Shown here: positions 1 to 17,016 of the stretch, one piece after another
Layout: every line of letters starts with the position of its first letter
How positions within the stretch are numbered: position 1 is the stretch's first letter
Virus record (IMG/VR): IMGVR_UViG_2778261231_000008
Source: a virus
Lineage: Duplodnaviria > Heunggongvirae > Uroviricota > Caudoviricetes
Reading direction: 5' to 3' (one strand)
Length of the DNA stretch: 24,977 nucleotides
Program-made: the position numbers and the translations under genes
Notes under the pieces: model-generated
What the model saw: the letters and a program-made list of their open reading frames with translations, nothing else
Databases searched by the model: none
Told to the model about the DNA's origin: nothing

Positions 1-1053
1 TTACGGGGTAATGCCAACCGCTGCCGCCACTTTGTCGCCACTTGGCAATGTTGCCAGAGGATTGAAACGGAGCGCCGTTTCCAGATGATCCGGTGCCAGA
101 TGTGCGTAACGCATAGTCATTTTTATATCGTGGTGTCCGAGAATTTTTTGTAAGGCCAGGATGTTTCCACCCGACATCATGAAGTGCGCCGCAAAAGTAT
201 GGCGCAGAACGTGTGTCAGTTGACCGCGAGGGAGCACGATAGACGTTTTTTCCATCACGGATAAAAATTGAAAATAGCAGTCTGTGAAGAAATTGAACCC
301 ATCAAGCGCCATGATCTCTTCGTAAAGCTCTTTACTGATAGGGATGCTTCTGTTTTTCTTCCCCTTCGTTCTTACAAAGGTAATTCGGTATTTGGTCACC
401 TGTGAGCGGGTAAGATTTACGGCTTCTCTCCAGCGTGCGCCTGTGCTTAAGCATATCTTGACTACCAGAGCCAGAATTGGGTCCTGACGTTTGCAATCAG
501 CCAGTAATTCAACAATCTGCTCATGGGTAAGCCATGCCATCTCTTTTTCTGCGATGGTGAATTTTCGCATGTTCTCCAGTGGGTTCGGATACGACCATTC
601 GCCCAGACGGGATAGTTCGCTAAAAACACTACTTAGATAGCTTTGCTCCAGGTTAATGGTGACCGGGCTTGCTCCTTTCTTCCATTTCTCGCTGAAGTAG
701 ATCTCGCCTGTCAGGCGTTTATCTCGATAGTGGGCAAACATTTTAGAGGTGAGATCGGTTGCAAGAGGATTGCCTAGAGCGTCAACCATCAGCAGCAATT
801 TGTCATAGACATGCTGTCCAGCAGTCAGAGATTTACCATGTAGTTTGAACCATAGCTCAACCACGTCTTTCAGGGTTCGACGATCCACTGATTCGCCCAG
901 CCAGGGCTTTGATTCGGTTTCTTCCATCGTGTGACGCTCAAAAGCCAGAGCTTCGCCTTTGGTGGCGAATTGTTTACGCACACGACGCCCACTTCGTCCG
1001 GCGGGGTAACATTCGCAAAGCCATTTCCCTGTGGTGAGTTTTCGTACTGCCAT
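1..1053 (-). CDS. int: Tyrosine integrase (P2/186-like site-specific recombinase)
   Basis: 402-aa ORF in the track; the likely true start is the internal ATG at 1051..1053 (MAVRKLTTGKW...), preceded by a GGAGGG Shine-Dalgarno, giving 350 aa. The C-terminal region carries R..HxxR...Y tyrosine-recombinase signatures (LRHTFAAH, MRYAHL). Position at the prophage edge next to att. Confidence 0.88.
   Translation of the reverse strand: MAVRKLTTGKWLCECYPAGRSGRRVRKQFATKGEALAFERHTMEETESKPWLGESVDRRTLKDVVELWFKLHGKSLTAGQHVYDKLLLMVDALGNPLATDLTSKMFAHYRDKRLTGEIYFSEKWKKGASPVTINLEQSYLSSVFSELSRLGEWSYPNPLENMRKFTIAEKEMAWLTHEQIVELLADCKRQDPILALVVKICLSTGARWREAVNLTRSQVTKYRITFVRTKGKKNRSIPISKELYEEIMALDGFNFFTDCYFQFLSVMEKTSIVLPRGQLTHVLRHTFAAHFMMSGGNILALQKILGHHDIKMTMRYAHLAPDHLETALRFNPLATLPSGDKVAAAVGITP
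19..41. repeat. attL core: 23-bp direct repeat cgctgccgccactttgtcgccac, repeated at 22123..22145 with one mismatch
   Basis: Direct comparison of the two ends of the phage-like block; identity stops on both sides of the 23-mer. It overlaps the 3' end of the integrase ORF. Confidence 0.7.
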
Positions 1054-1241
1054 AAAAAATGCCCTCCAGTAGAGAGCATTTTTACTGTATGTATAACCAG
1101 TGTCAATGTATGAAATCCTACGACCATACATCTCACTGAAGCCATAATGAAGTTGGCTATTCTTTTTGCTATGTGAGCATGTAACTTTTGCGGTTAACCT
1201 GCGGCTCATTTTTATTTTAGACGCAGATATAAAAGCAAAAG

Positions 1242-4232: not shown

Positions 4233-4531
4233 CAAGGGCAGTGCGTATCCATCAATTAAAAATTGCACCTAAGTATTTCAACGCTGTGGTTGCAGGTCAA
4301 AAGACGGCTGAACTTCGTAAAGACGATCGTGGCTATAAAGTTGGTGATGTTCTTTCTCTTTGCGAATGGAAGCATGGCGTATTTACGGGTAGGGAATGGG
4401 CCGCTGTTATCTCTCATGTGCTTCCGGTTAATGACGTCATGGCAGTTTCAGAACAATGGGTGATGCTATCAATTCGCCCATTAACCCCATTAGAAGCTTT
4501 AGGATATGTTATTGCAGGAGGTGCTGTATGA
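4229..4531 (+). CDS. Small ASCH/PUA-like domain protein (about 100 aa), tentative
   Basis: ATG at 4229 ([11 protein letters not shown]...) preceded by GGAGG and overlapping the upstream stop; segment [32 protein letters not shown] resembles ASCH/DUF3850-type proteins as I recall them. Confidence 0.45.
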
Positions 4532-5385
4532 GCACCATCCTGAAATGGGCGGGAAATAAAACCGCCATTATGTCCGAACTGAAAAAACACCTTCCTGCTG
4601 GCCCGCGACTGGTTGAACCTTTCGCGGGTTCCTGTGCTGTGATGATGGAGACCGATTACCCCAGCTATCTGGTTGCGGATATTAATCCTGATTTAATCAA
4701 CCTCTATAAAAAGGTTGCCGCTGATTGTGAATCGTTTATATCTCGCGCCAGAGTTTTATTTGAGATCGCAAACAGGGAGGTGGCTTATTACAACATAAGG
4801 CAGGAGTTTAATTACTCCACTGAAATTACTGATTTCATGAAAGCGGTATATTTCCTGTATCTCAATCGTCATGGTTACCGTGGATTATGTCGCTATAACA
4901 AGAGCGGGCATTTCAACATTCCGTACGGTAATTATAAAAATCCGTATTTCCCTGAAAAAGAAATTCGCGCATTTGCAGAGAAAGCCCAGCGGGCAACGTT
5001 TATCTGCGCAAGCTTTGATGAAACGCTGGCGATGCTGCAGGTGGGGGATGTGGTGTATTGCGATCCGCCGTATGACGGTACGTTTTCCGGCTATCACACT
5101 GATGGTTTCACTGAAGATGACCAGTATCACCTGGCATCCGTTCTTGAACATCGGTCATCAGAAGGACATCCGGTCATTGTTTCTAACAGTGACACATCCC
5201 TGATCCGTTCGCTGTATCGCAATTTTACTCACCACTACATCAAGGCAAAACGCAGCATCGGTGTGGCAGCTGGTGAGAGTAAATCTGCAACAGAAATCAT
5301 CGCTGTTTCCGGGCCGCGCTGCTGGGTGGGATTTGATCCTTCGCGTGGCGTGGATAGTTCTGCCGTGTACGGAGTGCGTGCATGA
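4528..5385 (+). CDS. dam: DNA adenine methyltransferase (Dam-like, GATC N6-adenine)
   Basis: ATG at 4528 ([15 protein letters not shown]...) with AGGAGG upstream; close to E. coli Dam throughout, including the N-terminal AdoMet motif (LVEPFAGS), [16 protein letters not shown] and the catalytic DPPY motif. Confidence 0.9.
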
Positions 5386-7766
5386 GCCATGCTGATATGA
5401 ACAACTGCAGCGGCTTTAACGAGGTCGCCGCAGCATTCTCATGGAACAGCCCGAAAAAGGCCATTAACCCTTATCTGGACCCGGCGGAAGTTGCGCCGGT
5501 TTCTGCGCTTTCAAACCTGATCACTCTGTACGCTGCAGATAACGAGCAGGAACAACTGCGCCGCGAGGCACTGAGTGATCAGGTCTGGGAGCGTTATTTC
5601 TTTAATGAATCCCGTGATCCTGTCCAACGCGAAATGGAGCAGGATAAGCTCATTAGCCGGGCAAAGCTGGCGCATGAGCAGCAGCGTTTTAATCCGGACA
5701 TGGTCATACTGGCGGACGTTAACGCCCAGCCTTCCCATATCAGCAAGCCGCTGATGCAACGTATTGAATACTTCAGCAGCCTGGGCAGGCCAAAGGCTTA
5801 TTCCCGCTATTTGCGTGAGACGATTAAGCCATGTCTGGAACGACTGGAGCATGTACGCGAGAGTCAGCTATCCACTTCTTTTCGCTTTATGGCAATCCAT
5901 GAAGGTCTGGACGGCCTGCTGATATTGCCTGAAATGAGTCAGGATCAGGTGAAACGCTTGTCTACTCTTGTCGCTGCGCATATGAGCATGTGTCTTGATG
6001 CCGCTTGTGGTGATTTGTACGCCACCGATGATGTTAAGCCAGAAGAAATCCGCAAGACATGGGAAAAGGTGGCAGCAGAAACCCTGCGACTGGATGTCAT
6101 ACCGCCTGCGTTTGAGCAACTCCGCCGGAAAAGAAACCGCCGTAAACCCGTGCCCTATGAACTCATTCCGGGTTCGCTGGCGCGTATGTTGTGCGCCGAC
6201 TGGTGGTACCGGAAATTATGGAAGATGCGTTGCGAATGGCGGGAAGAGCAGTTGCGCGCTGTCTGCCTGGTCAGCAAAAAAGCATCTCCTTATGTCAGCT
6301 ATGAAGCCGTGATGCATAAACGTGAGCAGCGCCGTAAGTCGCTGGAGTTTTTCCGTTCTCATGAACTGGTGAACGAAGACGGCGACACGCTGGACATGGA
6401 GGATGTGGTAAACGCCAGCAGCAGCAACCCTGCGCATCGCCGCAATGAGATGATGGCCTGTGTTAAAGGTCTGGAGCTTATCGCGGAAATGCGCGGTGAC
6501 TGCGCCGTTTTCTACACCATCACCTGTCCGTCACGTTTCCATTCCACGCTAAATAACGGCAGGCCCAACCCGACCTGGACAAATGCGACGGTAAGACAAA
6601 GCAGTGATTATCTGGTCGGCATGTTTGCTGCATTTCGTAAGGCGATGCACAAAGCCGGATTGCGCTGGTATGGCGTGCGGGTGGCTGAGCCGCATCATGA
6701 CGGTACAGTTCACTGGCACCTGTTGTGTTTTATGCGCAAAAAAGACCGCCGCGCCATCACTGCATTACTGCGTAAGTTTGCCATCCGTGAAGACCGCGAG
6801 GAGCTGGGCAATAACACGGGGCCGCGCTTTAAGTCTGAGTTGATTAACCCGCGCAAAGGAACGCCGACAAGCTACATCGCGAAATATATCAGTAAGAACA
6901 TTGACGGGCGTGGTCTGGCTGGCGAGATCAGCAAGGAAACGGGTAAATCCCTGCGTGATAACGCTGAATACGTGAATGCCTGGGCGTCTCTGCATCGTGT
7001 TCAGCAATTCCGCTTCTTTGGTATTCCGGGGCGTCAGGCTTATCGTGAACTGCGATTGCTGGCTGGTCAGGCGGCAAGGCAGCAGGGTGACAAAAAAGCA
7101 GGTGCGCCGGTACTGGATAACCCACGCCTTGATGCCATCCTAGCTGCTGCTGATGCTGGTTGTTTTGCCACCTACATCATGAAGCAGGGGGGCGTACTGG
7201 TTCCCCGCAAATATCACCTCATCAGAACCGCTTATGAAATCAACGAAGAGCCGACCGCCTATGGTGATCACGGCATTCGTATTTATGGCATCTGGTCACC
7301 CATTGCAGAGGGCAAGATCTGTACTCATGCAGTGAAGTGGAAAATGGTTCGTAAGGCCGTTGACGTTAAGGAGGCGGCAGCCGACCAAAGCGCTTGCGCC
7401 CCTTGGACTCGTGGCAATAACTGTCCCCCTGTTGAAAAAATGTACCAGACAGGGGGCGAATTATCGGGCAGGCAAGAACCTGCAGCCCTGCCGGACTTCG
7501 AGAATATGAGCAAAAAGGAGCTGCGAGAACTGACAGCGAGGCTGCGACTGGTCAAACCGAAGCGCCGGAAAGGGTACAAACAGGAAATTACGGATCACCA
7601 GCGCCTGCAGCTCGATGCGGAACTGAGGTCCAGAGGCTTTGACGCGAGTGAAACGGAAGTTGATCTGCTTCTACGTGGCGGCAGCTTGCCATCTGGAGCC
7701 GGATTGCGGCTGTTCTACCGGAACCAGCGGCTGCAGGAGGATGACAAATGGCGGCAGTGGTACTGA
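5382..7766 (+). CDS. A: Replication initiation endonuclease A (P2 gpA family, rolling-circle)
   Basis: 794 aa; conserved block [19 protein letters not shown] and ...[12 protein letters not shown]... with the active-site tyrosine region typical of P2 A; start overlaps the dam stop. Confidence 0.85.
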
Positions 7767-7844: not shown

Positions 7845-7864
7845 TACTGTATATATAAACAGTA
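7845..7864. promoter_or_regulatory. LexA (SOS) box, TACTGTATATATAAACAGTA (CTGT-N8-ACAG)
   Basis: Near-perfect match to the LexA operator consensus, 17 nt upstream of the GTG start at 7881 and overlapping a likely -10 (TATAAA). Confidence 0.75.
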
Positions 7865-7880
7865 ATAAGGGGAGGGAGTT

Positions 7881-8066
7881 GTGAACGATTTGTTCATGGA
7901 GTCACTTGCACTGCAGCGGATAGAACTTATGGCCCGGCTGGTCGCCAGTTCAGATTGTAGCGATGACGACAAGGAGGTTGCGATTTCGTGGCTGTCGGAG
8001 CTGACGAGCGATCTGGTTACCAGGCTGAATGAATACGGAGTAGGGCAGGATGAGAGTACGCATTAG
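7881..8066 (+). CDS. SOS-regulated small protein (61 aa); possible Tum-like antirepressor or its remnant
   Basis: GTG start preceded by AAGGGGAGGGAG; lies directly downstream of the LexA box and of gene A, the position of the LexA-controlled tum operon in phage 186. No sequence-level recognition of Tum. Confidence 0.45.
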   Translation: MNDLFMESLALQRIELMARLVASSDCSDDDKEVAISWLSELTSDLVTRLNEYGVGQDESTH

Positions 8067-8248: not shown

Positions 8249-8267
8249 GGCGTGGCGGGGATACGAG
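8249..8267. other. Possible cos-site remnant (ggcgtggcggggatacgag)
   Basis: The first 13 nt match the 19-nt cohesive-end sequence of P2/186 as I recall it (GGCG[A/T]GGCGGGGAAAGCA...), then it diverges; lies in a GC-rich non-coding stretch between the SOS gene and the cargo cassette. Confidence 0.25.
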
Positions 8268-8401
8268 CGCGCGCTGATGCAACTTGCAGCTATTGTTTAT
8301 TCATGGGGGGGCATCACACACATAACGGACATTTTTGTTTGAAAAATATAGTGATTGAGGCGATTATTGATGTAACGCTATCAACATAACAAAGGCTTCT
8401 T

Positions 8402-10423
8402 ATGAGCAGTTTTTATTATATCCAGCCGGAATTAAAAAACGATTTTAATGCAAGTTTTTTGAATTCTTTGGAAGAGTATTCCAATCGAAAACAGTTGCAG
8501 GTATATGCTATAAAAAATCCTCTCGGGGAAAATAAGTATAACTATGATAGAGATGACGTTCTGGTGTTATTAAGCCCCGGATGCAAAATGGCATTTATTA
8601 ATTTCGGAGATAATAGTGATGAGTTTGAAAATTTCCAAGAGGATTTTGTCGAGGATTTAGGCTCACTATCTGATAAATACAATTATAAAGATACAATTGG
8701 AAGACCACGTGAATGGCGTCGTAACCTGGTCTCGGATTTTATATTCAATGATATCGATGACGATTTAGATGCGTTTTTTGATGAGATTAAACTCGCGGAT
8801 GGATCGCTTGCAAAAAAGAGCGAGTTAATCATCTCGTTGTTGACTGGTAGTATAAACAATATTGATAAAGTAAAAGGGAATGTTCCTGACAATATCCTTG
8901 ATAAAGTTAAGCAAAAAATAATTTTATTTGATGGAGATCAAACTAGATTTGTATATCAGAAGTTTGATAAGAAAAAAGTAATTATTCAAGGGCTTTCAGG
9001 CACGGGCAAGACAGAACTTTTGCTTCACAAGTTGAAAGAAATATATTTGGATAAGAATAATCATGATAGTAAAATAATGTTTACATGTCATAATAAAATC
9101 TTGGCAGATAGTATGAGAAAGAGGATTCCAGAGTTCTTCAACTTTATGAAAGTTGAACAACAAATTAGCTGGAATGATAGATTGTGGTGTGTAAACGCTT
9201 GGGGATCACAATACGATAATAATTCTGGGGCTTATCGTTATATCTGTGAAGCCTATGGGATAAATTTTCATCGCTTCAGCTATGTCATGACCTTTGATAG
9301 AGTTTGTCGCTTAGCATTGGAAGAAATAAGAAAAATCCCTGAAGGTCAATTCAAACATTGCTTTGATTTTATGTTGGTCGATGAAAGTCAGGATTTTCCA
9401 TCAAGTTTTATCGAGCTTTGTGAGTTAGTAACTCGCGATACACTGTATGTAGCAGGTGATATATTTCAAAGTATATTTGATACCAATATTTCTAATGAAA
9501 TCCAACCTGATTTTTTATTGAGTAAGTGTTACAGAACTGACCCGAGAACTTTAATGTTTGCCCATGGAATTGGCATGGGGTTATTTGAGAGTGAGCCTCT
9601 CACATGGCTCGAAAATGACGAGTGGGAAGCATGTGGCTATATTGTGGACCATTTTGAACGTGCCAAGTTGAGATTGAAACGTGAGCCATTACGTAGATTT
9701 GAAGATGTGACTGATGCCAAAATCCATAGTGTTGAATTAGTTAATTCGACATTTGATACTGAAGAAAAAAACATCTTGGATTTATTGCATAAAATCAAAG
9801 CAGAGAATCCAACTGTTCTAGCTGACGATATCGGTATTATTTTTATCGATAAGGCTAAAAGTATCTTCACTATTGCCGATAAGCTTGAAGTCAGTGTTCC
9901 AAGAATTTTTGGTTGGAAAGTGAATAAGGCTTATGAAACCAAAGAAAAAGTAAAGGATACTTTATTTCTTAGTAATAAAAATCATGTAAAGGGGTTGGAG
10001 TTCCCATTTGTTATTTGTGTTACGCGAGATATTAGTAGAAGCCATTCAGATCGAAATTCTTTATATATGATGCTGACTCGATCCTTTATTCGTTCCTATT
10101 TGCTTTTAGGTGATCGTGATGAAAGTCTTCAGGCTGAAATTCAGCGGGGGTTAGAAAACATTAATGCTCATGGCTATATGGAAATTACCATTCCTCCTCA
10201 AGATGTTATCGAAAGAATAAGGACTACAATTAAGTTTGACGAGAAAAGTATTTCCCATTATGACTTGGTGTCTAAGGTGTTCGATGATCTCAATATTGAG
10301 GCTATATTCAGGCCGTCACTATATGAAATTGTGAAGAATATTCTTCCAGACTCTTTTGATGTTGAAAGGATATCAAAAGTCATTTTGTTTAATTACGAAG
10401 AAATGCTTCAGGAGACAAAATGA
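8402..10423 (+). CDS. SF1 (UvrD/Rep-like) helicase-family ATPase with an unassigned ~190-aa N-terminal domain; candidate anti-phage defence protein
   Basis: 673 aa. Walker A GLSGTGKT (nt 8990..9013), motif II LVDESQDF (9374..9397), motif III GDIFQSIF, motif IV CYRTD, C-terminal motif-VI-like MMLTRSFIRSYLL. Visibly AT-rich codon usage unlike the flanking phage genes. Sits between gene A and the portal gene. Confidence 0.75.
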   Translation: MSSFYYIQPELKNDFNASFLNSLEEYSNRKQLQVYAIKNPLGENKYNYDRDDVLVLLSPGCKMAFINFGDNSDEFENFQEDFVEDLGSLSDKYNYKDTIGRPREWRRNLVSDFIFNDIDDDLDAFFDEIKLADGSLAKKSELIISLLTGSINNIDKVKGNVPDNILDKVKQKIILFDGDQTRFVYQKFDKKKVIIQGLSGTGKTELLLHKLKEIYLDKNNHDSKIMFTCHNKILADSMRKRIPEFFNFMKVEQQISWNDRLWCVNAWGSQYDNNSGAYRYICEAYGINFHRFSYVMTFDRVCRLALEEIRKIPEGQFKHCFDFMLVDESQDFPSSFIELCELVTRDTLYVAGDIFQSIFDTNISNEIQPDFLLSKCYRTDPRTLMFAHGIGMGLFESEPLTWLENDEWEACGYIVDHFERAKLRLKREPLRRFEDVTDAKIHSVELVNSTFDTEEKNILDLLHKIKAENPTVLADDIGIIFIDKAKSIFTIADKLEVSVPRIFGWKVNKAYETKEKVKDTLFLSNKNHVKGLEFPFVICVTRDISRSHSDRNSLYMMLTRSFIRSYLLLGDRDESLQAEIQRGLENINAHGYMEITIPPQDVIERIRTTIKFDEKSISHYDLVSKVFDDLNIEAIFRPSLYEIVKNILPDSFDVERISKVILFNYEEMLQETK

Positions 10424-11055
10424 CAAAAGAATATTATTTTAGCCTTGATCAATCTCAATGCGATTGGGCTTTTAAGGCAATTAGAAATAAAAAAGATGTT
10501 ATTGAAATATTAATGAGGGTTTTAAAGACAATTTCAGTATACACTGAACCATCAGCCGATAAAGTTGCTGGTAAGATGAAGTTACATATATCAAAGATGA
10601 GTCGTGTTTTCTTTTTTAGTGAAGGGAAATACTATTCGTTAGCATTCCCCTTTACGCTGGAAGTTAGTGGAGATAATCTTTGCTTCTGTAGCGGTGAAAT
10701 TGAAGTTATTGACAGTTACATTACTTCTAAAGTGCTTGCGATTATTAATGATTCTTCCTATCTCAACCCATCTCTTTGGGCATTTTTTGAGCCACTAGTA
10801 GAGCTTGAGGATCATCAAACTATTCCAGGATTTTGGCAATTTTTCAAAATGCTGCTTACGCATGAGGATGGATACATCAGATATGATGTTGACCCAGATC
10901 CGAGACGATTAGATCCAAGGAGTCACCCTTTACATCATTTTGATGTTTTCTATTCCAATCAGCCAACGTTCAAAATTGGTCTAAGAGAACATTATACTAA
11001 TGATGATATGATTGACTTATTAAATAGAGAAACTGATTGTCATTTTTTTGAATGA
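10420..11055 (+). CDS. Hypothetical 211-aa protein translationally coupled to the helicase; candidate partner/effector
   Basis: Start ATG overlaps the helicase stop (ATGA at 10420..10423); AT-rich; no motif I recognise. Confidence 0.65.
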   Translation: MTKEYYFSLDQSQCDWAFKAIRNKKDVIEILMRVLKTISVYTEPSADKVAGKMKLHISKMSRVFFFSEGKYYSLAFPFTLEVSGDNLCFCSGEIEVIDSYITSKVLAIINDSSYLNPSLWAFFEPLVELEDHQTIPGFWQFFKMLLTHEDGYIRYDVDPDPRRLDPRSHPLHHFDVFYSNQPTFKIGLREHYTNDDMIDLLNRETDCHFFE

Positions 11056-11065
11056 TGTGAACGTT

Positions 11066-11094
11066 AATTTAGCTGGCAATTAGCCAGCTAAATT
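11066..11094. terminator. Perfect 12-bp-arm palindrome (aatttagctggc / gccagctaaatt); likely bidirectional terminator
   Basis: Hairpin between the convergent 3' ends of the cargo operon (+) and the portal fragment (-); weak U-tract on the + strand. Confidence 0.5.
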
Positions 11095-11097
11095 TCA

Positions 11098-11802
11098 TTA
11101 TAATAAGTAGTCTGTAAATTGGATTATATCTTGGTCCAGATAGGTGTTTAATTCTTCAATTCTTTTTTGCAGTGGTAATAACTCATTTCGAACAAAAACA
11201 TTCGCCGCCTTTTCCACATCCCCAAACCCCCCAACATTACTTGGCATAATCCCCATCATCTGCGGTGGTACACGGTGTGCCGCCATCATGTCATCCCGGC
11301 TCACGTTCTTAATGTTCAAAAACTCATCCTTTGCCGCCACTTCTGACAGTGGAATGATCTGAATGCCATCCTTTTTGCCGTTTGGCGAGTACATAAACAG
11401 GTTGCGGAAATTGCCCGGACCTTTGGCGCTTTTCATGGCCTGGCGGATGTTGTTCACGTCCTCCTGGTTCTGCGCGGCGTCAGTCATATACATAATAAAA
11501 CCCGCGTGACTGCCATTGATGTAATACTTCCGGCGGAACAGCGTGGCTGACTCGTTCAGCAGGGCGGAAGGGATAGCGGACAGATATTCCGGCAGGCCGT
11601 AAATCTCCTGGTTCAAATCTGGCTCCATCAGGTGAAAGATGCTGCCTTTGGTAAACTCATACGGCTGCGTGGTCATGCCGTATTGCACAAACCAGTAGGT
11701 GTCTAAATCGATCCCGCGGCGGGTGTATTTCGCCAGCGATGGCTCCAGTGACAGAATCCCGCCCAGTCGGTTCGTCCGTTTCTCCAGGTAACCTGCAGAA
11801 AG
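11098..11802 (-). pseudogene. Q: Portal protein (P2 gpQ family), C-terminal ~234 aa only
   Basis: Portal-like sequence (...FRRKYYINGSHAGFIMYMTDAAQ...HRVPPQMMGIMPSNVGGFG...) ends at the native stop (11098). The N-terminal ~56 aa of the track ORF is GC-rich low-complexity translation of the antisense of gene S, so the 5' part is deleted. Confidence 0.7.
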
Positions 11803-12230
11803 TTGACGCCTGGCTGGCGGCGCTGCTGGCAAATCTGGAACCAGCGGCGCGAAAGCGAATGATGCTGGAGCTGGCGCAACAGCTGCGCCGGAATCAGCAG
11901 AACAACATCCGCCTGCAGCGCAATCCTGATGGGACTGGCTACGAGCCGCGCCGGGTAACGGCCCGAACAAAGAAGGGTCGCATTAAGCGGCAGATGTTCG
12001 CCAAACTCCGCACCACGAAATACCTTAAAACCGCCGCCAGTGCCGACTCTGCCAGCGTAGAGTTTGCCGGGCAGGTACAGCGCATCGCACGGGTGCATCA
12101 TTACGGCTTACGGGATCGTGTAAGCCGTAAGGGGCCGGAGGTGCGGTATACAGAGCGGCGGTTGCTTGGGATAACTGATAATGATCATGAGATGATTAAA
12201 TCAAGCATACTAGGTTTTTTGATTAAGTAG
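11739..12230 (+). pseudogene. S: Tail completion / virion morphogenesis protein S homologue, nearly full length but without its native start
   Basis: From about nt 11799 the ORF reads like P2 S / Mu G family (RNQQNNIRLQRNPDGTGYEPRR...FAGQVQRIARVHHYGLRD). The first ~18 codons are antisense of portal sequence, so the deletion endpoint is at the S start. Confidence 0.55.
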
Positions 12231-13389
12231 TCTGATCTTTTTCTTTAAAATAACCTTCAATTTTTGCAATTAAAAGACTGATGCTTTCTATAAAGTTTTT
12301 TGTTTCGCTCTCACTTGGTTCATGATGAGTGTGTGCGATTTTATCCCGTAAGTTTTTTCGATTCTCATTGGCTGTTTGCCATTCTAGCTGAGCAATCTCT
12401 GGCACAGATATATTGAACTGTTGTCTAAATAGTTGTTTGCACCTTACCTCAAATTTCCAGTTTTTGTTTAGAATGGCCTTAGTTTCGCATTCATCATGGC
12501 CTTTCTTATTAAGTTCATTGATTAGCAATCTAAGGATGTAGCTTTCAAGTCCAGCTGAAGCTTCGATTACGGCAGATCTTAACGCCCCTTTATGAACAAG
12601 GTTGTTCGCTCTAATTATTAATAATTCAGGGTGTTCATTGAATTCATCTGTCATTAATCGACGTTTAAAATCTTCAATCTGAATTTCATTATGATTGTAC
12701 CAACTATTTCGCATTAGTGGTGTTATTATTCCAACCATAGGTATTGAGCTTACCTTAACTCCATCACAGTAATGTTCTTGCAATACGCCGTTAGTGAAAC
12801 CTAACCCTGCTTGATAAAGAGATATTTCATCAGCGAATTGATCATTGAAGGCTACTCTATACTGCTTTATAAAGTGGTTGATTATACCTATGCATTCTTC
12901 AGATTGTTTGGGCGGAAATATCTCTCTAGCAGTTTTTTTGATACTTTCGAGTTTTGCTACCTTCTCAATATCTAAATTGTCCATCGTAGCTATGTGCTCT
13001 TTGGCCTCATCTTCAGATGGGTAATTGTCACCGCTTCGGATCTGACTTCTAATAGTGTTGATAAATTCCTCTTCTGAAAGTTCAGATAGAACCGCGCATT
13101 CGGCAACACTGGCAAGGGAAATTACAGTGCGGCATTTCATTATTCCTCTGTCGTTTAATATGTGTGGTGTTAATTGTTCCTTGGTTCCGAGCAACAAGGT
13201 TTGTGGGAAAAGATAAGCATCTTTGAATAATGTATAATAATCATTGTGTACAGTTAAACAAAGTTCAGTGTGTTCATAAATAAAATTATATATCCCATCG
13301 GGAATGTTCAGGACATACGGTAATTCAACTAAATAACGAGCCGCGAAAATCATGTGGTCCATCTCCATATGAGAATTGCATTGTGCCAT
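12223..13389 (-). CDS. Hypothetical 388-aa cargo protein with a C-terminal Rx4H (HEPN-like) motif; candidate abortive-infection/defence gene
   Basis: AT-rich reverse-strand ORF between S and V (the orf30 position of P2). Motif RDKIAH at nt 12331..12348. Start uncertain: the ATG at 13351..13353 has the better Shine-Dalgarno (GGAGA). Confidence 0.6.
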   Translation of the reverse strand: MAQCNSHMEMDHMIFAARYLVELPYVLNIPDGIYNFIYEHTELCLTVHNDYYTLFKDAYLFPQTLLLGTKEQLTPHILNDRGIMKCRTVISLASVAECAVLSELSEEEFINTIRSQIRSGDNYPSEDEAKEHIATMDNLDIEKVAKLESIKKTAREIFPPKQSEECIGIINHFIKQYRVAFNDQFADEISLYQAGLGFTNGVLQEHYCDGVKVSSIPMVGIITPLMRNSWYNHNEIQIEDFKRRLMTDEFNEHPELLIIRANNLVHKGALRSAVIEASAGLESYILRLLINELNKKGHDECETKAILNKNWKFEVRCKQLFRQQFNISVPEIAQLEWQTANENRKNLRDKIAHTHHEPSESETKNFIESISLLIAKIEGYFKEKDQTT

Positions 13390-15274: not shown

Positions 15275-15872
15275 CCTGCTGCCGCCTGGTTCGTCAGCAC
15301 TTGAGCGCCGACTGGCGGAGAGCTGCAGCGGCATTTCCGATCTGCAGGTGCCCCTGCGTGACCTCTGGAGCCCGGCAACGTGTCCGGTTGCCTTTTTGCC
15401 GTATCTGGCATGGGCATTTTCCGTGGACCGCTGGGACGAAAGCTGGGCGGAAAGCGTGAAACGCCGGGTGGTGCAGGATGCCTTTTACATTCATCAGCAC
15501 AAGGGCACAACCAGCGCCGTGCGGCGGGTGGTGGAGCCGTTCGGTTTCCTGATCCGCATTCTGGAGTGGTGGCAGACCAACGAGGCCCCCGGCACGTTCC
15601 GGCTGGACATTGGCGTGCAGGACCAGGGGATTACGGAGGAAACCTATCTGGAGCTGGAGCGCCTGATCGGTGACGCCAAACCCTGCAGCCGCCATCTGAT
15701 TGGCATGTCAATCAACCTGCAGACGAGCGGCCCGTTTTGGGTAGGGGCTGGCACCTACATCGGGGAGGAAATCACCGTCTACCCGTATATCAACGAAACC
15801 ATTACTTCCGGCGGCCCGGCCTTTGCGGGCGGGGCGGTCCATGTTATTGACACAGTGAGAGTGAACCCATGA
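15267..15872 (+). CDS. I: Baseplate/tail protein I
   Basis: Start at the ATG at 15267 (MNSLLPPGSS...), internal to the track ORF; LPxLAWAFSVDRWDE...GTFRLDIGV matches P2 gpI. Confidence 0.85.
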   Translation: MNSLLPPGSSALERRLAESCSGISDLQVPLRDLWSPATCPVAFLPYLAWAFSVDRWDESWAESVKRRVVQDAFYIHQHKGTTSAVRRVVEPFGFLIRILEWWQTNEAPGTFRLDIGVQDQGITEETYLELERLIGDAKPCSRHLIGMSINLQTSGPFWVGAGTYIGEEITVYPYINETITSGGPAFAGGAVHVIDTVRVNP

Positions 15873-16717
15873 GCGCAAAATTTTACACCCTGCTGACGGA
15901 CATTGGCGCGGCAAAACTGGCAAGTGCTGCCGCGCTCGGTGTCCCGCTGAAAATTACCAAAATGGCAGTGGGCGACGGGGGCGGTGTGCTGCCGACACCC
16001 AGCGCGCAGCAGACTGGCCTGATTGCAGAAAAGCGCCGCGCCGACCTGAATATGCTCTACATCGACCCGCAGAACAGCAGCCAGATTATTGCGGAGCAGG
16101 TTATTCCTGAAACGGAAGGCGGTTGGTGGATTCGTGAAGTCGGGCTGTTTGATGAGACAGGCGCGCTGATTGCCGTCGGCAACTGCCCTGAAAGCTACAA
16201 GCCGCAGCTGGCGGAGGGCAGCGGGCGCACACAGACCGTGCGCATGGTGCTGATCACCAGTAGCACCGATAACATCACCCTGAAAATTGACCCGGCGGTG
16301 GTGCTGGCAACTCGCAAGTATGTAGATGACAAGGTGCTTGAGCTAAAGGTGTACGTGGATGACCAGATGGCGAAACATATCGCCGCGGTTGATCCCCATA
16401 CGCAGTATGCGCCAAAGACTAGCCCGACCTTTACCGGAACACCAAAAGCACCCACTGCGGCGTCAGGCAATAACACCACCCAGCTTGCCACCACGGCATT
16501 TGTGCAGGCCGCTATTGCGGCGCTGGTCAATTCCTCCCCTGGCGCACTGGACACGCTGAACGAGCTGGCTGCAGCGCTGGGCAATGATCCGAACTTCGCC
16601 ACCACCATGACCAATGCGCTTGCGGGGAAAATGGGTAAGGCTGCCAATCGGCCTGTAGTAACCCATAACGGTGCGGGCTACCGCGCCAGAACTCACTTTT
16701 TCAGGACAAGAACATGA
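15869..16717 (+). pseudogene. H: Tail fibre protein H, N-terminal ~254 aa only
   Basis: N-terminal and conserved middle block (...SSPGALDTLNELAAALGNDPNFATTMTNALAGK) match P2 gpH; after about nt 16630 the frame runs ~28 unrelated codons to a stop. P2 H is about 670 aa. Confidence 0.8.
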
Positions 16718-17016
16718 GCGACAAAACAAACGAAAAAACTGTGGTACTGGATACGCCAATCCTGCGCGGCAAAAGCGAAATCAAAGAGGTGGTGCTGCGT
16801 AAACCCCAGTCTGGTGCGCTGCGTGGCACCCGCCTGCAGGCCATTATGGATATGGACGTGGGCGCGATGATGACCATCATTCCGCGAATCTCCAGCCCGA
16901 CGCTGACCCCGCAGGAAATGGCGGAGCTGGACCCGGCAGACCTCACCGCAATGTCCGTGGAGGTGGTCACTTTTTTGTTGAAGAAGTCGGTGCTTGCCGA
17001 TTTGCCGACAGCCTGA
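16714..17016 (+). CDS. E: Tail assembly chaperone E
   Basis: 100-aa ORF upstream of the tape-measure gene, carrying the slippery heptamer T_TTT_TTG. Confidence 0.8.
   Translation: MSDKTNEKTVVLDTPILRGKSEIKEVVLRKPQSGALRGTRLQAIMDMDVGAMMTIIPRISSPTLTPQEMAELDPADLTAMSVEVVTFLLKKSVLADLPTA
16971..16977 (+). other. Programmed -1 frameshift site T_TTT_TTG producing the E' (E+E') product that terminates at 17150
   Basis: My manual -1 frame translation from 16977 runs open to a TGA at 17148..17150, overlapping the T start; this mirrors the E/E' arrangement in P2. Confidence 0.7.

Follow-up and report, generated by a model that had tools for sequence, protein, structure and literature searches.

An AT-rich helicase operon in a defective Escherichia coli P2-like prophage as a probable divergent member of the Helicase+DUF2290 family

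Results

Organization of the two-gene cassette

We analysed a 24,977-nucleotide stretch of viral DNA (Caudoviricetes; IMG/VR record IMGVR_UViG_2778261231_000008), hereafter called the window, in which a P2-like prophage of Escherichia coli carries a two-gene cassette between gene A/cos and the portal gene. The list of open reading frames (ORFs) contains, both on the + strand, a 673-residue ORF at 8402..10423, which encodes a superfamily 1 (SF1) helicase, and a 211-residue ORF at 10420..11055, which encodes its small partner. An initial annotation had described the pair as one AT-rich operon, in which an SF1 helicase-like ATPase is followed by a small partner, compositionally foreign and beginning its second gene on the stop codon of the first, and all of this stands. 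The ATG of the partner (10420-10422) overlaps the TGA of the helicase (10421-10423) in an ATGA sequence, and a GGAG precedes it at 10411-10414, as read directly from the sequence. Over positions 8501-11000 the GC fraction is 0.33-0.36, lower than in the left prophage arm (0.50-0.55) and in the tail genes (0.58-0.62).

A candidate sigma-70-like promoter, a consensus match alone, lies 35 nt upstream of the helicase start. At the other end, a perfect hairpin without a U-tract separates the cassette from the convergent portal gene, and it is a possible bidirectional terminator. The Rfam scan of the cassette found no RNA element. Both ORFs are full length and keep every helicase motif and every family-invariant residue. 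Measured against the closest relative, at a dS of ~0.3, the ratio of nonsynonymous to synonymous substitution rates (dN/dS) is 0.07 in the helicase gene and 0.13 in the partner gene; both genes are therefore under purifying selection.

The helicase belongs to the STM2767 family

The helicase consists of an N-terminal domain (residues 1 to ~163), an SF1 ATPase core (~164-570) and a helical C-terminal region (~571-673). The motifs GLSGTGKT, LVDESQDF, GDIFQSIF, CYRTD and MMLTRSFIRSYLL are all found in the translation, and Pfam reports matches to UvrD-helicase, UvrD_C_2, AAA_19 and Viral_helicase1. Over its full length the protein matches the NCBIfam model NF053713, "STM2767 family DEAD/DEAH box helicase", with an E-value of 4.7e-293 and 973.7 bits against a cut-off of 550. 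A PADLOC scan of both cassette proteins returned a partial match of the helicase to the 'Helicase' model (PDLC03002; E 4.7e-28, residues 160-358 only) and none for the partner.

The nearest solved folds of the AlphaFold2 (AF2) model of the helicase, with a predicted local distance difference test (pLDDT) score of 80.8, are SLFN11/SLFN14, Dna2, Ighmbp2, Upf1 and RecD. These Schlafen/Upf1/RecD-like neighbours agree with the DUF2075/Schlafen-type top HHpred match reported for the canonical helicase of the Helicase+DUF2290 system (Rousset et al. 2022) and with weak SLFN-g3_helicase matches in 17 of the 26 helicase-family members of our alignment. The initial annotation had assigned the protein to the UvrD type. 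Its placement in SF1 with the full motif set holds, whereas the UvrD label does not; judged from the model, the helicase is an SF1 enzyme but not specifically UvrD-like. The PDB sequence search with the helicase produced no match.

The N-terminal ~160 residues adopt an alpha-beta-beta-beta-alpha-beta order in the AF2 model, which is compatible with a restriction-endonuclease-like fold. In the family alignment, the positions that would form D...(D/E)xK show no conservation, in keeping with the earlier observation that a canonical E-x-K is missing from the domain. Invariance is concentrated instead in the segment EDFxEDLGSxSDKYxYKxxIGRPRxW, and the acidic residues D81, E84, D85 and D91 are among the invariant ones. 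Assignment of the domain to NERD or to the EC042_2821 restriction endonuclease (REase)-like family was not confirmed, the EC042_2821 match being sub-threshold.

The helicase family is large (>3,000 matches), and members with 55-58% identity are found as far as Thiothrix, Vibrio, Marinobacter, Aeromonas and Anaerolineales. In PHROGs the protein is split between two groups, both of unknown function (phrog_16361, residues 7-313; phrog_13375, residues 318-665), which suggests that the gene was called as two ORFs in the phage genomes behind PHROGs.

The partner belongs to the STM2766 family and is related to DUF2290

The partner matches NCBIfam NF053714, "STM2766 family helicase-associated protein", over its full length, scoring 213.7 bits where the cut-off is 70 (E 2.2e-63). 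Its family comprises 783 clusters at 50% identity, all of ~200-230 residues. Among 44 diverse STM2766 members, which served as the partner-family alignment, residues R154, D158, H169, P170, D175, K185 and G187 of the conserved core are invariant, and D156 and H173 nearly so. The structure model of the partner had no structural match in the PDB, and the PDB sequence search with the partner profile returned only noise (REV1, E 0.2).

For comparison we assembled a canonical DUF2290 set of 11 proteins, taken from pFR91, from P4 system 23 and from nine plasmid loci of Nostoc, Acinetobacter, E. coli, Ralstonia, Thioflavicoccus, Corynebacterium, Mycobacterium and Exiguobacterium. Of these, pFR91 represents the Helicase+DUF2290 system from a P4-like satellite of Klebsiella pneumoniae SB5961, which inhibits T7 (Rousset et al. 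2022, PMC9122126). The window helicase is detectably related to its pFR91 counterpart by BLASTP (E 8e-17 over residues 165-340), and hhalign of the 26-member helicase alignment against a canonical helicase (L004, 718 residues) gave a probability of 99.5% and an E-value of 6.2e-23 over 428 columns, spanning the core and part of the C-terminal region (residues 164-607).

Single-sequence comparison of the partner with the validated DUF2290 protein gave a BLASTP E-value of 0.11, and phmmer found no matches in 260 sequences. Because these pairwise comparisons were not significant, profiles were needed for the partner. PF10053, the Pfam DUF2290 model, is matched by 8 of the 44 partner-family members (best E-value 1.6e-6) and the PADLOC DUF2290 models by 5 of them. 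In hhalign, the 44-member alignment matches the 11 canonical DUF2290 sequences with a probability of 90.3% and an E-value of 1.5e-6 over residues 151-202, pairing GYIRYDxD...HPLxHxD...TFKIGL of STM2766 with IRFDYD...HPxSHLTL...CRIP of canonical DUF2290, so that the two have the core motif IR[YF]DxD...HPxxH...[RK]I in common. A hidden Markov model (HMM) of canonical DUF2290 matches 66 of the 260 STM2766-family proteins. The best bridging proteins, P0374 and P0377, match it nearly over the full length (E 2.7e-9 and 6.1e-9, HMM positions 19-177) and match the STM2766 profile at ~1e-57. From the profile alignment together with these near-full-length bridging sequences, we conclude that STM2766 is a divergent clade of the DUF2290 superfamily.

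A further connection comes from the published catalogue of loci in the P2 hotspot. Table S5 of Rousset et al. 2022 lists system #119 as "DUF2290 | NERD/AAA_19/UvrD_C" with 26 occurrences, and the sequences printed there (MNKEYYFSLEQAQCDWAF... and MSSFFYIQPDLKNDTN...) belong to the E. coli orthologues of the two cassette proteins. The partner in this entry, WP_001031670, is annotated in RefSeq as "STM2766 family helicase-associated protein". System #119 appears in neither the list of validated systems nor that of systems tested negative (Tables S2A and S2B of the same study). The initial annotation had presented the cassette as a candidate undescribed anti-phage system. This claim falls because both genes match the already named Helicase+DUF2290 system at the profile level; moreover, the E. 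coli orthologue is the catalogued system #119, and NCBIfam curates both families.

Helicase and partner travel together on mobile elements

We compared the window with 17 further STM2766-type loci (L001-L003, L005-L017 and L027; L028 repeats L027). In 17/17 the gene immediately upstream of the partner encodes a full-length helicase, and the identities of the two proteins to those of the window fall jointly across the loci, from 95/93% down to 42/27% (helicase/partner). The canonical DUF2290 loci have the same order and tight spacing, with an ATPase of 705-719 residues immediately upstream in 10/10.

The initial annotation had raised the question of whether other P2-like prophages carry homologous pairs in this slot, and such pairs do occupy the A-Q slot of four P2-like elements (L001, L005, L006 and L009). 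The pair also adjoins the P2 portal in L007, L014 and L027/L028, and it occurs on a Thiothrix chromosomal island. When STM2766-type and canonical loci are taken together, the carriers also include plasmids with toxin-antitoxin modules, and methyltransferase or PglZ genes are found among the neighbours. Members of the STM2766-type branch come from Enterobacterales, Vibrio, Thiothrix, Halomonas, Pseudomonas, Fusobacterium, Bacteroidales and Eubacteriales. Among complete E. coli genomes the pair is rare, being present in 5 of 5,426, each time at only 75% nucleotide identity to the window, and the window alleles at at least 85% nucleotide identity were found in 0 of these 5,426. A search of the phage GenBank collection, distant mode included, found no DNA resembling the cassette.

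Two of the carriers deserve separate description. The cassettes nearest to that of the window (amino-acid identity 95% for the helicase and 93% for the partner; L027 10001..12654 and L028 2010..4663) reside in a more eroded P2 remnant, flanked only by an integrase fragment (Int_N, 82 residues) and a portal fragment, beside TetR and MFS genes. The cassette seems, from these remnants, repeatedly to outlive its prophage. In Vibrio coralliirubri (L003 1..11493), a homologous pair ends a small PM2-like prophage near a tyrosine integrase. This prophage encodes a PM2-type spike protein (Pfam P2_N/P2_C) and is, by this marker, a corticovirus-like carrier of the same cargo.

The cassette occupies the cos-adjacent hotspot of a decayed prophage

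On the host side, the flanking genes ybjL-ybjM-grxA show 100% identity to E. coli, and the prophage site is the rcdA-rybB-ybjL region, the same as that of a related prophage in E. coli N9. The features of the window are listed in Table 1.

Table 1. Positions of the cassette features and of the main prophage genes in the window
Feature	Position	Strand	Remarks and evidence
Integrase	1..1209		P2-like prophage
Dam methylase	4456..5385		P2-like prophage
Replication gene A	5382..7766		93.7% amino-acid identity to 'replication endonuclease' of E. coli P2-like prophage
cos-like core GGCGTGGCGGGGATACGAGC, left boundary of accessory hotspot	8249..8268	+	Alignment
Sigma-70-like promoter candidate, TTGAAA-17-GATTAT	8339..8367	+	Consensus scan, 9/12 matches
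STM2767-family SF1 helicase, 673 residues	8402..10423	+	NCBIfam NF053713, Pfam, PADLOC, hhalign, AF2 model
Translational coupling signal, GGAG then ATGA start/stop overlap	10411..10423	+	Direct sequence reading
STM2766-family helicase-associated protein, 211 residues, divergent DUF2290 homologue	10420..11055	+	NCBIfam NF053714, profile comparisons
Conserved core of partner, GYIRYDVD...HPLHHFD...TFKIGL, residues 151-188	10870..10983	+	Shared with canonical DUF2290
Perfect 12-bp hairpin, 11066-11077 / 11083-11094, 5-nt loop	11066..11094	.	Inverted repeat, 100% complementary
Portal gene, truncated	11098..11970		Pfam Phage_portal
Baseplate V	from 13445		
Tape measure	from 17143		
D	from 20363		

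The cassette starts ~130 bp after a short sequence, GGCGTGGCGGGGATACGAGC, which would be the cohesive-end core reported by Ziermann & Calendar 1990. A 19-mer taken as the exact P2 cos does not occur within 3 mismatches, and only alignment reveals the cos-like region. The sequence GGCGTGGCGGGGATACGAGC is identical in the P2-like prophage of E. coli N9 and can be aligned with the DNA next to cos in P4 and in the K. pneumoniae P4-like locus (Rousset Table S2). Rousset et al. 2022 (PMC9122126) defined a cos-adjacent gpA-gpQ hotspot, where P2 carries tin and old and where many validated systems are also held. Since the cos-like core aligns with P4/P2 cos-proximal sequence, the cassette can be placed in this hotspot, and the order of gene A, cos-like core and portal bears out the earlier view that the cassette is cargo in the P2 A-Q (tin/old) slot.

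The portal ORF has 290 residues, its Pfam match begins at model position 68, and it is fused head-to-head with gpS (11098..12230). The junction at 11790|11793 maps onto 15396|23008 of L001, an intact P2-like prophage of E. coli, in comparison with which ~7.6 kb is missing, including the portal N-terminus, terminase, scaffold, capsid and lysis genes and R. Further to the right, the tail fibre gene H (15869..17016 region) encodes 282 residues that match the first ~255 positions of ~620-residue PHROG tail-fibre profiles, and a gpE-like tail gene abuts this shortened gene; G, FI (sheath) and FII (tube) also appear to be deleted. Because ~7.6 kb with the terminase, capsid and lysis genes is missing, the prophage is, by its gene content, now defective.

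Other features of the prophage were seen in passing. The S-V slot is occupied by a second AT-rich cargo gene (12223..13389, - strand, 388 residues, GC ~0.36-0.40), which matches phrog_28299 (unknown function) at E 3e-192, has no Pfam or NCBIfam match and shows a weak PADLOC PD-T4-2_B match over residues 332-374 that spans RDKIAH (Rx4H, HEPN-like); it may be another defence or abortive-infection gene. A perfect LexA-box-like CTGT-N8-ACAG (CTGTATATATAAACAG) at 7847..7862 stands just upstream of a 61-residue ORF at 7881..8066, which belongs to phrog_698 and has a weak DinI-like match, so that 7847..8066, between gene A and cos, has the look of a small gene under SOS control. The RybB small RNA gene (22200..22278, - strand, Rfam 105 bits) is located between the right end of the prophage and ybjL.

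Discussion

A model for the function of the cassette

We consider it probable that the cassette is a Helicase+DUF2290-type operon of a divergent STM2767/STM2766 subfamily, carried as cargo in the A-Q hotspot of the defective E. coli P2-like prophage, and that it encodes a helicase-partner complex blocking phage. The family identities, the homology to a validated system, the helicase-to-partner synteny, the coupling, the purifying selection and the recurrent carriage on prophages, satellites and plasmids are established by the data, and phage defence by the STM2766 subfamily is what we would predict from the validated relative. We found no published account of the mechanism of Helicase+DUF2290 in the literature. 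In a possible mechanism, the helicase and its partner would act as one constitutive complex, in which the SF1 (Schlafen/Upf1/RecD-like) motor and the degenerate nuclease-like N-terminal domain would recognise invading phage nucleic acid and translocate on it. This ATP-dependent engagement would license an effector activity, most likely residing in the DUF2290-type partner with its R154/D156/D158/H169/H173/K185 cluster. The outcome would be a block to the replication of certain phages, as the validated relative blocks T7. By its conservation, the Arg/Asp/Asp/His/His/Lys cluster of the partner looks like a catalytic or metal-binding site. A more far-reaching version, which we advance only tentatively, is that STM2766/DUF2290 proteins are enzymes of a fold unseen in solved structures, with a superfamily-wide Arg-Asp-Asp-His-His-Lys/Arg cluster, that are switched on by a Schlafen/Upf1-like SF1 motor; STM2767/STM2766, which the current Pfam and PADLOC DUF2290 models do not see, would then be a functionally distinct subtype of defence that differs in phage range and in trigger.

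Several observations weigh against the assignment to Helicase+DUF2290 and against a defence function. The partner of the window itself matches neither the Pfam (PF10053) nor the PADLOC DUF2290 models, even at E <= 10, and the profile alignment between STM2766 and canonical DUF2290 spans only ~48 columns. For the helicases, Pfam NERD matches are found in 0 of the 26 family members, and between the two subfamilies the N-terminal domains give no significant alignment (hhalign E 0.07). Anti-phage validation exists for the K. pneumoniae P4 variant only, and that variant protected against T7 only (Rousset et al. 2022). In addition, a lactococcal DUF2290/helicase homologue failed to protect against the phages used.

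Alternative roles for the two proteins

The helicase could instead be both sensor and effector, as in Nhi, with the partner as a regulator, inhibitor or adaptor that, for example, holds the helicase inactive until infection. The canonical Helicase+DUF2290 helicase indeed has a NERD-like N-terminal domain (HHpred 98.1%, Rousset Table S3), the N-terminal domain in the window combines a restriction-endonuclease fold order with the invariant D81, E84, D85 and D91, and the nearest solved folds, Dna2 and SLFN11/14, are nuclease-helicase fusions. However, the D...(D/E)xK positions are not conserved in the subfamily of the window. Pfam NERD is matched by none of the 26 members, and the EC042_2821 REase-like match is sub-threshold. 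The partner, moreover, has its own invariant Asp/His/Arg/Lys cluster, kept in canonical DUF2290 and needless for a mere adaptor, and we regard an effector helicase as unlikely.

It is also conceivable that the pair serves its mobile element, either as a toxin-antitoxin-like addiction module or as a replication or recombination helicase. Its carriers are mobile elements in every case, toxin-antitoxin and plasmid-stability genes are often its neighbours, it persists in prophage remnants that are heavily decayed, as would be expected of an addiction module, and the lactococcal homologue had no anti-phage effect. Such a role is nevertheless improbable in view of the measurable anti-T7 protection given by the homologous system and of the location in a documented defence hotspot with tin/old and many validated systems. 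The prophage has replication genes of its own (A), and the pair hops among unrelated types of element (P2, PM2-like prophages, plasmids and islands) as exchangeable cargo, not as core machinery. We see very little chance that the cassette is inert cargo, without current function and decaying with the defective prophage. At least two blocks of essential genes are gone from the prophage around it, which would fit such a decay, but the ORFs are full length with all helicase motifs and family-invariant residues intact, their dN/dS values are 0.07 and 0.13 against a relative at a dS of ~0.3, and the full-length NCBIfam scores lie far above the cut-offs. A Helicase+DUF2290-type defence operon remains the explanation that we prefer.

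Implications for the detection of Helicase+DUF2290

The pair opens no new class; it is a new divergent allele of a catalogued subfamily within a named defence system. A sizeable and taxonomically broad branch of Helicase+DUF2290 escapes the Pfam and PADLOC DUF2290 profiles and has therefore probably been missed by profile-based detection, and adding the NCBIfam STM2766/STM2767 models or comparable profiles would close this gap. As a compact 2.7-kb operon under purifying selection in a dead prophage, the cassette is a convenient test object, and the conserved residues of both proteins are direct mutagenesis targets.

Comparison with known systems

The earlier statement that the pair is not Gabija, Hachiman or Nhi was upheld. 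Gabija and Hachiman resemble the cassette in the concept of a helicase paired with an effector. For Gabija, no GajA-like (OLD-type ATPase-TOPRIM) ORF or match was found, and the GajB models matched weakly (E 1e-4 to 6e-3); for Hachiman, there is no DUF1837 HamA, and HamB is a superfamily 2 helicase. A RecD-type assignment was likewise considered and rejected from the PADLOC scan. Nhi, like the helicase of the window, fuses a nuclease-like N-terminal domain to an SF1 helicase, and the anti-phage role is that of Nhi. Unlike the cassette, Nhi is a single protein, whereas the second gene is obligatory in every locus that we compared and the nuclease motif of the window is degenerate; no PADLOC Nhi match was obtained.

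The NCBIfam families NF053713 and NF053714, of which the window proteins are full-length, high-scoring members, are named after adjacent genes of Salmonella Typhimurium LT2 in a variable region by fljAB-hin, and they are annotation labels with no function attached. Compared with the common E. coli alleles, those of the window have ~80% identity in the helicase and 67-69% in the partner (67% by tblastn, 69% by global alignment).

Helicase+DUF2290 (DefenseFinder 'Rst_HelicaseDUF2290'; PADLOC helicase-DUF2290) is the closest described system. The window helicase has ~27% identity to the validated one and is ~45 residues shorter, and its N-terminal domain is not alignably NERD, the nuclease-like domain that HHpred indicated for the canonical helicase (98.1%; Rousset Table S3). 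The alpha-beta-beta-beta-alpha-beta order of the model is nevertheless compatible with it, and Rousset Table S5 gives the orthologue a NERD label. The partner is beyond pairwise detection (BLASTP E 0.11) and is missed by both PF10053 and the PADLOC DUF2290 models. In architecture, on the other hand, the two agree: both consist of co-oriented, tightly coupled genes, with a helicase of ~670-720 residues followed by a partner of ~190-240 residues, and in both cases the P2/P4-type carrier has them in its hotspot next to cos.

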